Source: Myxococcales bacterium
GTDB lineage: Bacteria > Myxococcota_A > UBA9042
NCBI GenBank assembly: GCA_037441385.1
Contig: JBBISH010000059.1
Location: 1 to 38,226, forward strand
Reading direction: 5' to 3'
DNA: 38,226 bases
Numbering within the stretch: position 1 is the stretch's first letter; every line of letters starts with the position of its first letter. Positions 18,001 to 27,000 of the stretch are shown one piece after another. Made by a program: the position numbers.

Positions 18001-21000
18001 GGGCCCACCGCTGCGACGGTCGCGGTGAGCCCTGCGCCCGACAGGACCGCGGCGACCGGTCCAGCGAACCACCGCCAAGCGGCTGCGATCGCCGCCAAAC
18101 CAAGTAGCGCAACCGCAAAGCGGGTGCCCGCGGGGCCCAGCCAAGCGGCGGTGGTGATGGCGCCTGCGGCTTGGTCCTCGTCCTGGTCGACCTGCTCGTG
18201 GATCAGCTGGTTCTGCAGCAGCAGCGCCGCGAACACGGCCGTCCATCCCAGCGCCCTCGCATCGGCCTCGGCCCGCGGAGCGACCAGCAAGAGGGGCGAG
18301 AAGATAAACACATTCAACAGCGTGCCGAACACGAGCCGGCGCTTGCCGCGCGGCCCAAGGCTGTAGACGGCGCCAGCCGCCAGGCTGATCAGCGCCGCCA
18401 CCAAGGGCAGGGTGCCACCCAGGCCGGCCCCCAGCGCGGTCGCCAGGGCTAGCAGCGTCAGCGTCGCCATTGCGCCCGGCGCCGGCGTCTGCCCGATCCA
18501 CGGGTTCTTGCGCGGGTCCACGTCGGTGTGACGCTCCGTCAAGCCATTGATACCATAGGCGAATGCCAAGCAGCCGGCCGCCACTCCGGCGCCACGGGCC
18601 AGCGCCGCCAGTGCCTCGAGTTGCAGCGGCCGCCATAGCCCCGCCGCGATCCCGCCGGCCGGAAGCACCAGGAAGTACCACCACTGCCTGGCCCGCACGC
18701 CCACCGCCAATTGCCGCAGCAGGCCGTGCTGTGCCGGGGCCGGAGGCGAATACGGGGCGTGGGGTGTGGGTTGCAGCATCCGCGTCGACCCGCTCCGCGC
18801 CACCAGATGGTCGCGCTCACCGTAGTGTGCGGGATGGGCCGGGGCGAGGCAATGGCCGGATTCGGCGGCATCCCACGGCAAAGTGGAACAAATTCGAGCA
18901 GTAGAAAATGCCCCCCTTTTTTCGCCTTGACACGGGGGCGAGCGCGCCTATTCTGACCGAGCAGTCAGTGACCGGTTGGTCATCGACTCGCTGGTCAAGA
19001 ATCCCGCCGCCCGACCGAATCCGTTTCAGCACGAGGTCTTGTCGCATGGCCCGCCACGCCAATCCCAACTTGCAAGGGCAGTTGCTGGAAGCAGCCGTCA
19101 CCGTGTTTGCCGAGCGCGGCTTGCTCGCGGCCAAGGTCAGCGACATCACCGACTTGGCGGGCGTCTCTAAGGGCGCGTTCTACCTGCACTTCGAGTCCAA
19201 AGAGGCCCTGTACGAGCAGATGTGCCGGCAGTTCATTGCCGACTTGACCGGTCACCTGGCCGGCCACGGCAGCTTGATGTGCGGTCCCGAGGCGCTGGGC
19301 CTGCAAATGGTCGACCAACTGGCGGCCGCCGACGATGCGCTGCTGGACTGGCTGTGGCAGCGGCGCGCGCACCTGCAGATGCTGTTGGCCGGCGCCGCCG
19401 GTACGCCGCTGGCACACTTGAGCGATGTGTTCATCGAGTCCATCGAGAACTCGATGTTGGCCAGCATCGAGCGGATGCACGTGGCTTCGTGCCAGGAACC
19501 GATGCTGTCGTCGCAGTTCCTTGCCGCGATGGCCACGGGGCTCATCGTGATGTACGCCCGCAAACTGGTGAAAAACCACGAGCGGCCAGGCCTGACGCGC
19601 GATGTGCACCACTTCCGCCGCATCATGATGCTGGGGGCGCTCTTCACGCCGGACCAGCTCGAATCGCTCTGGACGAACGCCGCTCACCAGGCGCTGTCGT
19701 CGCCATCCCCCCTGCAAACTAGTGCAAAATAAAGGTAGTACCATGAGGCAGAAGATCGTCTATGTGATGCTGGTGCTTTCGGCCGTGGCGATGGGCTTGC
19801 TGCTCTACGTCAAGGTGAACAAGCGCCTGGACACCATGGCTTCCCTTGCCAAAGAGGCCGAGGCCAAGCAAGCCACGCAAAATCAGAAGGTGGCGCCCAA
19901 GCTCGTCCACCCCGAAGCCGGGCCGGCCACCGAGCAGTTGCACCTGACGGGCACGCTGAAGCCAGAGGCCGAGGTCTCGCTGGGCTTCAAGGTGCCGGGG
20001 CGGGTGGTCGAGATCGGCGTCAAGCGCGGCGACGTGGTCAAGAAGGGCGACTTCCTGGCGCGTCTGGATGCCCGCGACCTGCAAGCTCAGGCCGAGCAGG
20101 CGCAAGCCGGCAAAAAGGCAGCGGAAGCGCAGCGGGCGATCGCGTCGGACGCGCTGCGGCGCGCCAAGCAGCTGGCCGAAGCCGGTGCGGCGACCGAGCA
20201 GCAGGTGTTCCAGGCCAGCGGTCAGACCAGCGCCATCTCGGCCAGTATCGAGCAAGCCGGCGCGGCGCAACGCTATATCGAGGTCATCCAAGGCGAAACG
20301 CGGATGGTGTCGCCCATCGACGGCGTGGTGACGAGCGCCCCGACGGCACCCGGCTTTGTGGTGCAGGTCATGTCGGCGCCGGTGGTCACGATTCAGCGCT
20401 TGAGCACTCTGAAATTCGTGGGCCACTTGACCGACAAAGACGCCGCCCGCGTGCAGACCGGCATGGCGCTGCAGCTAGAGAGCGAGGCCGGCGTCAAGGC
20501 GCAAGGCACCCTGGACACGCTGATTCCCAGCGTGGACATGCTGACGCGCCGCGTGCCGATCGAGGCCACTGTGCCCAACGCCGAAGGCAAGCTGTTTGCC
20601 GGCTCGATGGTCGACGCGCAGATCGAAGTGCCGGCCGAGCCAAGCCTGGTGGTGCCGGTGTCGTGCCTGCTGACGGGCGAAAAGCCGTCGGTGCTGGTGC
20701 TGAACGACCAACGCGTGCTCGAGCGGCGCTTTGTCACCGTGGGGCGCACGCAGAAGGACCGCCTGCTGGTGCGCGCCGGCCTCAGCGCTACGGACACCGT
20801 CCTTGCCAACCCCGGCGTGGCCTGGCGCGAAGGCGAGACGGTGCCCGCCGCCGCCAAGTAGACCCTGCCAAGTAGCCCCTGCCGCGTAGCCGTTTCGCCC
20901 CGCCAATCTCACCTCGCCCCTGGACCGCCAACCGCAGTTGGAGCGCGCCATGACGCTTTCGGATCTTGCTATCAAGCGACCAGTCTTCACCATCGTGATG

Positions 21001-24000: not shown

Positions 24001-27000
24001 GTGTTCTTGTGGTCGGATTTCTTGCGCAGCTTGCCAGGCCGCCTGTTCAAGAAGAAGCCGAAGCCGCCTACCAGCGGTAGTGGTCACCAGGCGCCGGCGC
24101 CACAACTGGTGGTGGTGCTGCTGGGTTCGCTGGGCCTGCTGACCTGGCCGCACAGCGCGCAAGCCAACGAGTCGCCTGCGAAATTGCCGCTGACCACCGC
24201 CGTCCAGCGCGCCATCGAGCGCAACCCCGACCTGAAGGTAGCGCGCGCCAAGATCGAGGAGTCCGAGGCGGCGCGCAGCAAGATCGTCAACGCGTTCTAC
24301 CCCGACGTGAAGGCGGTGGGGCAGTACGTGCGCAACAGCGACGAGGCCAAGTTCGACATCGGGCAGATGGCCTCTGGCATTGGCGCGGCGATGGGGCTGC
24401 CCATCAAGATCGACCCCTCCAAGGCGCCGCCCGCCACGGTCATTCAGGCCTACAACCAGTACGCCGGCATCCTGAGCGTGGATCAGACGCTTTTTGCCGC
24501 CGCGCCGCTCCTGTACGACAAGGCGAGCGAGAAGGGCATCGGCGCGCAGCGCATCGGCACCGTGGCGGCTGAGCGCGAGATCGCCTACCAGATGTCGGTG
24601 GTTTACTACAATATTGCTGGGTTGGATCGCATCATCGTGGCTGCCGGCCGGGCGGTCGAACTCGCGCAAAAGCGCATCGAGTTGCTGCAAAAGCGCAAGG
24701 CGGCGGGGACCGAGAGCGACCTGCCGATGCTGCGCGCCGAGGTGGAGCAGGCCCGCGCCGAGCAGGACGTGCTACGCGCCACCCTGGGCAAGAAGCAACT
24801 GCTTGAAGTGATTGGCATGCTCTTGAGCGACACGCCGCCCGAAGACATCGAAGTGCCGCCGCCACAGTCCCGGCCCGAGGGGTCGTACGATCAGTGGCTG
24901 CAGAAGACCCTGGCGGATCGACCGGATCTGGCGGCGCGGCGGCAAGCGGTCGAAGCCCAGCGCGCGCTGCTGATCGAGGCCCAATACCGCTGGCTGCCGA
25001 TGCTGGCGGCGCAAGGCGTGTACCGCTGGAGCAACGTCAAGGGCTTTACCGACAGCAATACGCTTTGGCAAATCACCGCGAACTTGGTGGTGCCGATTTT
25101 CGACCGCGGCCAGCGCTACGCCGACGCACGCGAGCGGCGGGTGACCCTGTCGCGCCTGCAGGCCGAAGTCGAGAAGGCCGAGGCGGACTTGCGGGCGCAG
25201 CTGCGGCAGGCGGCCAACGAAGTGCAACTGGCGGAAAACGTGGTCAAGATCGCTGCCAAGCAAGCCGAGATTGCCAAGCGCGGCGCGGAGATCGCGGCCA
25301 AGAGCCAGATCGCCGGCGTGACGACCCACCTGGAGGTGGACGAGGCCGAGACCAACTTGCGGCTGGCCGATGCCAACGTGGAACGCGAAAAGGCGAACTT
25401 GGACCTGGCGTTGCTCAAGCTCCGGCACCTGGTGGGCGAGGTGCGGCCGTAGAAGGGGTGTCTCTTCCAACTCTTCCAATTATCGGCACTTGTGTCGAAT
25501 CGGCTTTGCCGGGCCATCGCTGTCGGGTAGCCTGTCGCACTCCGTCATTCCCTCGCGCTGACCGCGACGACTCAGGAAGACATGCGCAACTTCAAATTCC
25601 TTGCCGCGCCGCTGGCCGTCGGGCTGCTCTGGACCGCCGCATGCGGCACCACTGGCACGGCGGGAGGGGCGACGGCCAGTCCCAGCGATGCGGCCGCAAC
25701 CGGCTCCGACACGACAACCGGCTCCGACACGACAACCGGCTCCGACACTGCCGCTGCCTTGGACTCCGCCACGCCTGTCGACAGCGGCGCTAGCGACACC
25801 GCGACCCTCAGCGACGCTGGTAGCTGCCCCGAAGGAACTCCCTGCGACGACGGCCAGTTGTGTACCACCGGCGACCAGTGCAAGGGCGGCGTGTGCGTCG
25901 GCATCCCCAAGGACTGCAGCGGCGGCGTGGGCCCATGCAAGGTCGGCACGTGCGAGCCCAACAGCGGCCTGTGCCTGATCAGCGACAAACAAGGCGACTG
26001 CGACGACGGCAATCCCTGCACCCAAGCAGACTTCTGCGTCGTGGGCGTGTGCAGCGGCTACCCCATCCAGGGCTGCTGCGTTCCCAACTGCACCGGCAAG
26101 GTCTGCGGCGACGACGGCTGCGGCAAGCCCTGCGGCACCTGCCAGGCCGGCGAAGTCTGCGGCAACGGCACCTGCGTCAAGGACGCCCCGGCTGGCGAGT
26201 CCTGTGTCGATGCCAAAGAAATTCCCTCGCTCCCGTACAAGCACGTCGGCACCACCAAGGGCCGCAAGAACGACCTGAACGTCCCCGAGGCCGCCTGCTA
26301 CAGCTCGCCGCTGGGCACCTACAGCCCCGACGTCGTCTACCGCTACACCGCCCCAGCCGACATGACCGTCGGCGTTGCGCTCACCGGCTACAGCAACAAG
26401 CCGGCCTTCTACGTACTCGGTGACTGTGCTGACACCAAGAACACCTGTCTGGTCGGGCAGTTGGGCTATGGTCAGCCGTCGCTCGGTCCGTCCTACGCCG
26501 CGCTGAAGAAGGGCCAGACGGCCTACCTCGTCGTGGACGCGGACGACGACGGCGGCGACTATACCCTGGACGTCACCGCGTGCACGCCCGACTGCAACGG
26601 CAAACAGTGCGGCACCGATGGCTGCGGCGGCGTGTGCGGCTACTGCCAAAAGCTCTCGTCTTACGAGTGCAGCACGGCGGGTACCTGCGTCTGTGTGCCC
26701 AATTGCTACCAGAAATCCTGCGGTTCAGACGGCTGCGGCGGCACCTGTGGCAGCGCCTGTGGGCCCGGCCTAGAGTGCGACGACGGCAGCATGCAAGGCC
26801 AATTCACCGGCAACTGCGTCAAGCCCGGCCAACTCGGCGACACGTGCAAAACCGCGATTCCCGCGACGATCTCGCCCTTCACCTACAACGGTGACACCAC
26901 CGGACTGGGCAACAACCTGTACGCCTGGTCGTTCTGCCAGGGCAATGGCACCGGCGCCTACTACGGCGACGAGGCCCCCGACCAAGTCTTTGCGCTGGGC

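Follow-up and report, generated by a model that had tools for sequence, protein, structure and literature searches.

One open frame joins an RND efflux transporter to a TolC-like outer-membrane factor through a signal-peptide-like segment in a myxobacterium

Canonical tripartite RND pumps such as MexAB-OprM and AcrAB-TolC consist of an RND transporter, a periplasmic adaptor plus an outer-membrane factor (OMF); loci of the mexAB-oprM type carry the genes in the order regulator, adaptor, RND, OMF. The locus described here encodes the same three components in the same order. It departs from the canonical pumps at the boundary between the last two: no stop or start codon separates RND from OMF; the putative signal peptide of the OMF is internal, lacks a start codon and is preceded by a variable, predicted cytoplasmic linker; and the RND protein would keep an extra helix after processing. 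The window, that is the whole stretch of DNA analysed, is one complete contig (38,226 nucleotides) of a 221-contig genome that is 90.9% complete, and the fused gene lies mid-contig. The genome comes from a soil/groundwater-type myxobacterium.

The fused frame and its operon

The RND::OMF fusion is one open reading frame of 1,500 codons (20950-25452, forward strand) encoding 1,500 residues without internal stop (Table 1). The initial annotation had described a complete RND transporter joined in a single frame to a complete TolC-type factor, and its Pfam figures, like those on relatives, were reproduced within rounding. In a profile search, residues 4-1020 matched positions 2-1018 of the 1,021 of Pfam ACR_tran (878.6 bits). 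Two OEP repeats follow, located on the DNA at 24190-24786 (54 bits) and 24886-25437 (89 bits); the channel part scores 133.7 bits in total over two stretches, both repeats together making up a whole protomer.

Table 1. Features of the locus and parts of the fused gene
Feature	Position	Strand	Evidence or remark
TetR-family regulator ORF, 274 aa	18908..19732	+	Pfam TetR_N 57.1 bits
Periplasmic adaptor (membrane fusion protein)	19722..20861	+	NCBIfam TIGR01730 RND_mfp 201.1 bits (cut-off 94.9); Pfam HlyD_D23, HlyD_3, Biotin_lipoyl_2
RND::OMF precursor ORF	20950..25452 (stop codon included)	+	ATG at 20950; GGAG at 20940-20943, 6 nt upstream
RND permease domain, HAE1-like, 12 TM, residues 4-1020	20959..24009	+	Pfam ACR_tran 878.6 bits
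Tail and linker after TM12 (predicted cytoplasmic), S1022-Q1052	24013..24105	+	pLDDT <50; length and sequence vary among relatives
Basic stretch R1031-K1038	24040..24063	+	inside linker; aligns with M-R-I-F-R-K of genus g5
Hydrophobic core L1053-W1066, putative internal signal peptide or 13th TM pass	24106..24147	+	modelled helix
c-region P-H-S-A-Q-A, predicted signal peptidase I site A1072/N1073 (24165/24166)	24148..24165	+	conserved ending
Mature TolC-like OMF (predicted), N1073-P1500, 428 aa	24166..25449	+	two OEP repeats, TIGR01844, AlphaFold model, Foldseek

The RND part aligns over its full length with the solved structures of MdtB (E 4.7e-126), MexB (1e-100) and AcrB (1e-89). It carries the proton-relay motifs IDDA (400), TKNG (933) and RLRPILMTS (964), which provide the Asp-Asp of TM4, the Lys of TM10 and the Arg of TM11 and which we take to be the equivalents of AcrB D407/D408, K940 and R971. 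Its scores fell below the curated cut-off of every named NCBIfam RND subfamily (RND_permease_2, RND_permease_1, MdtB/C and AcrB among them), the top match, NF033617, reaching 806.3 bits where 1,250 are required, and it is therefore filed at the Pfam family level only. In the channel part the NCBIfam TolC model TIGR01844 spans residues 1078-1496 at 90.4 bits, below its cut-off of 225.15, and the NodT model TIGR01845 likewise stays below its own (56.7 versus 210.05 bits). Since there is no Cys at the seam, the channel part is not a NodT-type lipoprotein. Its AlphaFold model (mean pLDDT 85.7) is ordered from residue 1081 and has the fold of an OMF protomer, in which two beta-strands plus long helices occur twice, with strands at model positions 120-136, 164-184, 352-362 and 372-381 besides helices 67-69 residues long; compared by Foldseek with TolC, CmeC, OprM, CusC and VceC, it gave E values of 3e-18 to 1e-16 and TM scores of 0.63-0.75 over 423-449 columns.

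Upstream, a co-oriented adjoining adaptor gene and a nearby regulator gene complete what is expected of a tripartite RND efflux operon, as initially annotated. The adaptor gene lies directly upstream of the fused gene in all 14 relatives fetched and a TetR homolog lies upstream in 13, so that the order TetR, adaptor, RND::OMF recurs in 13/14. The TetR gene may in fact start further downstream, since its TetR_N domain occupies residues 59-105 of the 274-residue ORF. The eight other RND genes of the genome are indeed unfused, their open frames measuring 1,046-1,138 aa and none continuing into an OEP match.

Inheritance and origin of the fusion

A continuous match across the joint, within one open frame of 1,476-1,567 aa, was found in 14 of the 40 other genomes searched, and each of the 14 genes, once fetched, proved to be a single open frame. 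Identity across the joint ranges from 51 to 85% in these assemblies; five genomes of the same genus stand at 67-85%, while in a sixth the match falls into two pieces. Across the phylum, the uninterrupted fusion occurs in 23 of 301 genomes. No stop codon lies between the RND and channel parts in any of the 23 distinct clade members. The joint takes 12 distinct lengths in 15 genomes (51-101 aa between landmarks) and in every case leaves the frame open and in register, which argues that translation through the joint is under selection. Variability of the joint had already been reported from five orthologs; the range then given, 60-95 aa, has to be widened to the one above. The fusion is thus real, complete on both sides and inherited, as had been claimed. 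A slip in assembly or sequencing, or a stop codon lost recently in a decaying gene, might be suspected in a metagenome-type assembly of 221 contigs; that two neighbours were merged in this way is nevertheless scarcely credible, given that 14 other assemblies of the class share the fusion with both parts conserved at full length, and that the closest unfused relatives have an OMF gene downstream in 0/7 loci, leaving no adjacent gene for a slip to merge.

In the RND tree the 23 distinct clade members are monophyletic (SH-aLRT 100). Fused frames of 1,403-1,865 aa also exist in five genomes of another family of the phylum (f44) at 43-51% identity, as the initial annotation had noted in support of an inherited fusion. 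The fusions themselves stand, whereas an inheritance shared with this clade is improbable: unfused genes separate the f44 fusions from this clade in the RND tree (SH-aLRT 95), and a branch with support 100 separates the f44 channel parts from this clade and its free paralogs in the OMF tree. The f44 genes are probably not the same inherited fusion, and the trees point to the phylum having seen two or more separate fusion events.

A signal-peptide-like segment at the joint

The joint comprises 60 residues in this gene, in which the basic stretch R1031-K1038 is followed by a Pro/Ala/Gly-rich stretch, the hydrophobic segment L1053-W1066 and P-H-S-A-Q-A ending at A1072. The hydrophobic core was modelled as a helix (model residues 54-65, pLDDT about 60), and a hydrophobic segment occupies this position in 15/15 genomes. 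What signal peptidase I recognizes, namely a core, a helix breaker, small residues at -3 and -1 and no Pro at +1, is found as L1053-W1066, P1067 (-6), A1070-Q-A1072 and N1073, respectively. A strict A-x-A stands at the seam in 20 of 23 distinct clade members, the other three having S-H-A, T-I-A, and T-E-A or L-S-A, a count that, like the script-based one below, overstates independence because clade members are kin. Pro occurs at -4 to -7 in 13 of 15 genomes and at +1 in none of them. These features are kept across relatives while the flanking sequence varies. By a script count, 27 of 37 fused proteins (two of these rows being duplicates and three divergent ones mis-picked) have A-x-A after the hydrophobic segment of the joint, whereas in the RND parts it comes after 33 of 376 such segments, in proteins whose Ala-rich, high-GC character yields chance A-x-A more often than average. 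Divergent fused proteins carry A-R-A, A-S-A, V-A-A, A-L-A, A-H-A or A-A-A at the seam, and two have a lipobox-like ...S-C instead. The genome has two genes for signal peptidase I.

The segment departs from a textbook signal peptide, for 15 residues lie between the basic stretch and the core (up to about 45 residues in relatives); it is internal (1053 of 1,500), and no positively charged n-region stands immediately in front of the core at the protein N-terminus. Nor does the length of the core, 14 residues or 16-22 by a window method, separate a signal peptide from a short anchor. Judged by its sequence, the joint nonetheless resembles a Sec signal peptide that follows TM12, and with TM12 predicted to end in the cytoplasm it has the right orientation, in line with the initial proposal of an internal signal peptide.

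If the channel were made mainly from a start of its own within the long frame, the read-through fusion would be incidental. Genus g5 (L017, L021) does have an ATG (M-R-I-F-R-K...) with GGAGG 4 nt upstream, aligned with G1030-R-L-F-K-K, which could give a separate channel precursor, so that fused translation need not be the sole route in g5; in L011, the nearest relative, a GTG with GAGG immediately precedes the hydrophobic core. In the present gene, however, no ATG, GTG or TTG with a Shine-Dalgarno-like word lies between TM12 and the core, and 13/15 genomes are without a start at the aligned place, ATG plus GGAGG being restricted to the two of g5. Separate synthesis would moreover not keep the RND frame open, yet it is open throughout the clade and at every joint length. 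We consider such an internal start very unlikely as the main source of the channel.

Free relatives of the channel offer a direct comparison. Ten free OMF paralogs, one on contig C4 of this genome (upstream of an RND gene, on the same strand) and nine in relatives (L037-L045), are 43-47% identical over the whole channel and group with the fused channels with branch support of 99-100. They differ in being stand-alone genes of about 450-480 aa with ordinary N-terminal signal peptides, which end in P-x-x-A-x-A like the fused joint and lie 2-15 residues before the same first helix. In the fused forms this spacer is 2-20 residues; here, 8 residues separate A1072 from residue 1081, the first to be confidently folded.

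So short a spacer bears on a further possibility, that the hydrophobic segment is an uncleaved 13th TM anchor holding the channel covalently on the RND part in a permanent two-membrane machine. According to PMC8277102, the RND protein rises 40+30 Å into the periplasm and the channel alpha-barrel measures 100 Å, helix H1 being located halfway along it in the equatorial domain; the N-terminal helix of the channel would thus stand about 50 Å up a barrel that is itself above a 70 Å RND headpiece. With 8 residues to spare, an uncut chain could not bridge the distance between the inner membrane and the assembled channel. An anchor, furthermore, would have no need of conserved small residues at -3 and -1 around a variable -2, or of a Pro at -4 to -7; the identical ending serves as a cleaved N-terminal signal peptide in the free paralogs, and the lipobox-like seam of two distant fused forms implies processing. 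The unbroken frame in all relatives, the helix modelled for the segment and the basic stretch on the predicted cytoplasmic side would all suit a tether, as would the trimeric state of both RND and OMF, with which a 1:1 linkage fits (established knowledge; PMC8277102). On balance a permanent tether appears unlikely, and the small residues at -3 and -1, the Pro at -4 to -7, the lack of Pro at +1, the ending shared with free paralogs and the 2-20-residue spacer favour cleavage instead.

Proposed processing and comparison with known systems

We consequently propose, with a probability of roughly three in four, that signal peptidase I divides the precursor, yielding a free channel and a pump with a 13th helix left on it. 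The fusion, its completeness and inheritance and the conserved signal-peptide features are observed; how the chain lies in the membrane, its cleavage, what becomes of the tail and what benefit the fusion may bring are points that we infer, as follows. The RND part would insert into the inner membrane with 12 helices and a cytoplasmic C-terminus; after the short cytoplasmic linker, L1053-A1072 would be threaded into the Sec translocon N-in/C-out, making a 13th pass and initiating export of the channel part with its 428 residues. The cut by signal peptidase I would then fall after A-Q-A, between A1072 and N1073. The freed channel, now an ordinary TolC-like protein without precursor sequence, would fold and insert into the outer membrane, while the RND protein would retain the linker and 13th helix as a C-terminal tail. 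Together with the adaptor encoded upstream, the two products would assemble into a normal tripartite pump controlled by TetR. The fusion might pay off by enforcing 1:1 synthesis, by letting the channel be exported co-translationally where the pump itself is inserted, and by supplying a channel of its own to an operon family that otherwise lacks one.

A broader and more doubtful idea, which we put forward only tentatively, is that the fusion is a selected biogenesis device and not a frozen accident. It would have arisen at least twice in Myxococcota, within a TetR-adaptor-RND operon family otherwise without a channel gene, and again in other phyla, the cut leaving the RND protein with a new 13th helix. 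The change would also have run in reverse, free channel genes of the C4 type in this bacterial family arising from the fused gene's 3' part and the internal signal peptide turning into an ordinary N-terminal one. Were the fusion such a device, the same ribosome and Sec channel would insert the pump and then export its exit channel, with 1:1 synthesis enforced at one site.

No description of an RND::OMF fusion of this kind was found in searches of the open-access literature. In FbcH of Bradyrhizobium japonicum, the cytochrome b-c1 precursor, polytopic and exported subunits are made as one chain that is split at an internal signal sequence; there, unlike in this fusion, both products stay at the inner membrane, and the family is unrelated. 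A precedent for a type I signal peptidase separating a membrane domain from an exported one is given by SpsB of S. aureus, which cuts the polytopic LtaS between its membrane and extracellular domains (PMC12260438). That case differs in its monoderm host and in what is released, namely the enzyme's own catalytic domain, which the cut inactivates, with no second subunit destined for another membrane. Natural fusion of partner genes is known within the RND superfamily itself from SecDF of Thermus thermophilus (PMC8277102), in which both halves are inner-membrane parts forming one 12-helix unit, with no signal peptide or cleavage; the gene described here would instead deliver its two parts to two membranes.

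Architecture of the fused gene and its locus

The RND::OMF gene, in which an RND permease part is followed by an outer-membrane channel part (OMF), lies in the middle of its contig; the window is that entire 38-kb contig, from a genome in 221 contigs that is 90.9% complete. The permease part aligns over its full length with solved MdtB (E 4.7e-126), MexB (1e-100) and AcrB (1e-89), and it carries the motifs IDDA (400), TKNG (933) and RLRPILMTS (964), which we take to be the proton-relay Asp-Asp, Lys and Arg of AcrB. The NCBIfam TolC model spans residues 1078-1496 of the protein with a score below its cut-off, and none of the curated cut-offs of the named NCBIfam RND subfamilies is reached by the fused protein. 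Residues 1000-1500 were modelled with AlphaFold from a 24-row alignment, giving a mean pLDDT of 85.7. Values fall below 50 in the linker (1000-1050), the hydrophobic segment is modelled as a helix with a pLDDT of about 60, and the channel part is confident from residue 1081 on, comprising two repeats that each hold two strands and helices of 67-69 residues. Foldseek matches this channel model to TolC, ST50, CmeC, OprM, CusC and VceC (E 3e-18 to 1e-16, TM 0.63-0.75, 423-449 columns).

Features of the RND::OMF locus, of the joint between the two parts, and of the free channel paralogs
Feature	Position	Strand	Remarks
TetR ORF	18908-19732	+	directly upstream of adaptor and fused gene
Adaptor gene	19722-20861	+	TIGR01730, 201 bits; directly upstream of fused gene
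RND::OMF open frame	20950-25452	+	1,500 codons; ATG start, GGAG upstream with 6-nt spacer
ACR_tran	residues 4-1020		Pfam, 878.6 bits, model 2-1018 of 1021
Two OEP repeats	24190-24786 and 24886-25437	+	Pfam, 133.7 bits; C-terminal part of fused protein
End of TM12	W1021
Cytoplasmic tail and linker	S1022-Q1052
Basic stretch inside tail	R1031-K1038		R-L-F-K-K-K-P-K
Hydrophobic core	L1053-W1066		14 residues
c-region	P1067-A1072		P-H-S-A-Q-A
Spacer	N1073-K1078		N-E-S-P-A-K
First channel helix	L1079 onward
Free channel paralog	contig C4 of the same genome, about 5358-6752	-	others are L037-L045 in relatives

Eight further RND loci were found in the genome, with open frames of 1,046-1,138 aa. At six of them an OEP match lies 1.2-1.6 kb upstream on the same strand, suggesting the order channel, gap, RND; among the RND loci of the genome, only the fused one has a channel after the RND. 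In one of the RND genes (contig C22, 39974-43183, minus strand), a single frame of 1,134 aa, the Pfam match is split in two (1-629 and 630-1020), probably reflecting an insertion between the halves.

A scan of 18600-25800 gave no promoter or terminator signal: one promoter-like site (0.7 expected) and four terminator-like sites (5.0 expected). Of the sequencing runs listed as containing the locus, none was of RNA, and the only one with all of it may be the source sample. The locus has a single sigma-70-like match (18927-18954, plus strand, 10 of 12), which lies within the TetR ORF at its 5' end; the real start of this long ORF is probably further downstream, the TetR_N domain beginning at residue 59. 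Just upstream of the pump locus are three radical-SAM ORFs (13663-15594 and 15591-16943 on the plus strand, 16885-18684 on the minus strand). A link between them and the pump was rejected, as the 599-aa radical-SAM gene stands beside the fusion in only one of 14 relatives' loci, that of the closest relative. The 692-aa ORF directly downstream (25582-27660, plus strand) has no Pfam match and is beside the fusion in none of the 14 relatives; the DNA being high-GC, it may not be a real gene. Elsewhere on the contig (8960-10432 and 29278-31623 on the plus strand, 32203-33435 and 33432-35351 on the minus strand), the genes include a GH5 cellulase, a T2SS protein F-like protein, an MFS transporter and a Mur-ligase-like protein, with no evident tie to the pump.

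Inheritance and distribution

The initial annotation held that the fusion is inherited, and the relatives bear this out. Of 40 other genomes of the class, 14 (six of the same genus, five of the same family and three of other families) have a continuous match to a 350-aa query across the joint within a single open frame of 1,476-1,567 aa, and all 14 loci, once fetched, proved to be single open frames. The TetR and adaptor genes that it placed upstream are likewise present in the window and kept in 13 and 14 of these 14 relatives, respectively. In a sample of the phylum, the joint is in one frame in 23 of 301 genomes (this genome counted among the 301), of which 18 belong to the class and five to another family, f44.

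Word-indexed protein searches with the channel part returned 15, then 25, clusters of long proteins, all with both PF00873 and PF02321. These clusters bear either no name or only "efflux RND transporter permease subunit" or "HAE1 family protein". Since annotation names fused genes only as RND permease or HAE1, channel genes are under-counted and the pump inventories of such genomes are off. More divergent fused proteins occur in the class (loci L033, L034 and L036) and in metagenomes (P0016 and P0019-P0026). Two of the latter, P0025 (1,506 aa) and P0026 (1,504 aa), have a lipobox-like seam, F-S-S-C or A-M-S-C rather than A-x-A, which implies a putative internal signal of the lipoprotein type. 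The ESM Atlas holds clusters of 1,356-1,466 aa in which OEP accompanies ACR_tran in 60-88% of members; their few taxon labels are Planctomycetota and Bacteroidota. Among the best 150 of 6,205 matches of a joint-plus-channel query to a representative library, one was of fused length, one was a 546-aa fragment with the joint, and the rest were free channels. Consequently, the fused form is a small minority.

The joint as a probable signal peptidase site

The stretch between TM12 and the conserved N-x-D-L motif of the channel has 12 different lengths in 15 genomes (51-101 aa, always in frame), and its sequence conservation is low. What is conserved matches, at the level of sequence, a signal peptidase I site. 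The seam (in the window gene, the predicted cleavage site A1072/N1073) is preceded by strict A-x-A in 20 of the 23 distinct members of the fused clade, the remaining three having S-H-A, T-I-A, and T-E-A or L-S-A, and position -2 varies freely among Q, L, H, T, S, D, V, R and E. Of 15 genomes, 13 have proline at -4 to -7 and none has it at +1. In a scripted control, A-x-A stood just after the hydrophobic segment of the joint in 27 of 37 fused proteins; of the 376 hydrophobic segments found in the RND parts of these proteins, 33 were followed by it. The contrast is indicative only, as the rows are kin. The 37 rows include two duplicates and three divergent rows that were mis-picked (by eye, A-R-A, A-S-A and V-A-A).

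Ten free channels of the genome's own family, f1 (one of them on contig C4; hereafter C4-type), share 43-47% identity with the fused channel part along all of its length. These paralogs begin with ordinary N-terminal signal peptides, for instance L-P-A-Q-A/A-A-P-A-L-T-L and L-P-A-A-H-A/E-A-P-A-M-T-L (slash, predicted cleavage point), and the signal-peptide end lies 2-15 residues from the same first helix, versus 2-20 in the fused forms. The seam of the fused gene is thus the same object, in the same register, as a working signal peptide. The length of the hydrophobic core was rejected as a discriminator between signal peptide and anchor, the free paralogs having Ala-rich cores just as long.

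An uncut chain would hold the channel on a tether. According to the review PMC8277102, the periplasmic part of an RND pump is 40 + 30 Å high, the outer-membrane channel consists of a 100 Å alpha-barrel and a 40 Å beta-barrel, and channel helix H1 is part of the equatorial domain, halfway up the barrel. In the AlphaFold model, eight residues separate A1072 from the first folded channel residue; with these dimensions, such a spacer is too short for an uncut chain to connect the inner membrane with a channel in place in the outer membrane. Signal peptidase I is encoded twice in the genome, and PMC12260438 provides a bacterial precedent in SpsB, which cuts polytopic LtaS after its membrane domain. 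Spacer geometry, the two peptidase genes and the LtaS precedent favour a cut precursor, and we put at roughly three in four the probability that the fused product is cleaved at the seam. Nearer to the fused gene than LtaS, as an analogy, is FbcH, the precursor of cytochrome b-c1 in Bradyrhizobium; term look-ups in PMC7876108 and PMC3707914 gave nothing relevant to this precedent.

No Shine-Dalgarno-like word followed by ATG, GTG or TTG was found between TM12 and the core in the window gene. At the place aligned with G1030-R-L-F-K-K, genus g5 alone (L017 and L021) has an ATG (M-R-I-F-R-K-S-S) with GGAGG 4 nt upstream, which suggests that the basic stretch is a remnant of the original n-region and start of the channel; a separate channel precursor may still be made in this genus. 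In these fused genes (L017:6364-7791 and L021:324-1751) the in-frame ATG stands right after TM12, and one is also present in genome G169.

Origin and significance of the fusion

Quick trees with SH-aLRT support only were used to place both parts. The closest unfused RND genes (L046-L052), from other families of the phylum, are 42-50% identical over the first 300 residues. None of these seven unfused TetR-adaptor-RND operons has an OEP-bearing ORF downstream (15 downstream ORFs scanned), so the fusion gave a channel to a family of operons that otherwise makes use of a borrowed one. L032 (G037:C19:36500-42205) was the closest RND outside the fused clade in the first tree; its apparent status as the unfused sister was set aside because the contig stops at about residue 1003 of its RND frame, so that the gene may be either fused or unfused.

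The RND tree gives the window's clade (13 rows used, support 100) unfused L046 and L052 as its sister group (support 95) and leaves the fused f44 pair outside. That pair, L053 (G103:C157) and L054 (G262:C10), is also laid out as TetR-adaptor-RND::OMF; its seams read A-H-A and A-A-A, and its channel part shares only 26-28% identity with the window's. The OMF tree sets the window's clade and the C4-type channels apart, by a branch of support 100, from every other channel, those of f44 included. These placements and the low channel identity argue for two separate fusions, or one old fusion with repeated losses; as the f44 pair stands apart in both trees, its fusion is probably independent of the window's clade. 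Across the full set of RND rows (35 fused and 14 unfused), the fused or unfused label needs five changes, at least three of them forced by well-supported branches.

In three quick trees, the C4-type channels come out as a clade (support 99-100) placed within the fused clade; the branch that puts them there has support of 96-98 under LG+G4 and no starred support under a mixture model. They occur only in f1, and the fused forms that fall outside them belong to other families. The free C4-type channels may thus be a copied 3' part of the fused gene that became a free gene.

The fusion is solid, conserved and recurrent and would surprise a pump specialist, and its end product is likely a normal pump; in function, the locus is expected to encode an ordinary HAE1-like tripartite pump. 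Its unusual aspects are the architecture of the gene and the implied route of biogenesis. Fusion is also a route by which an operon family borrowing its channel in trans gains a dedicated one. Searches of open-access full text and term look-ups in the first 300,000 of the 747,818 characters of the Chem Rev review PMC8277102 found no description of a natural RND-OMF fusion, subscription journals, TCDB and InterPro lying outside the search. If cut as predicted, the product would be a natural bacterial polyprotein that crosses compartments, and a clean system for the handling by Sec of a large exported domain behind a 12-helix membrane protein. Such a product could further be used to test whether a pump prefers its in-cis channel and what is gained from fixed 1:1 synthesis. 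The usual description of a tripartite pump has three separate proteins; in this gene, a single chain encodes two of the three, whose destinations are different membranes.
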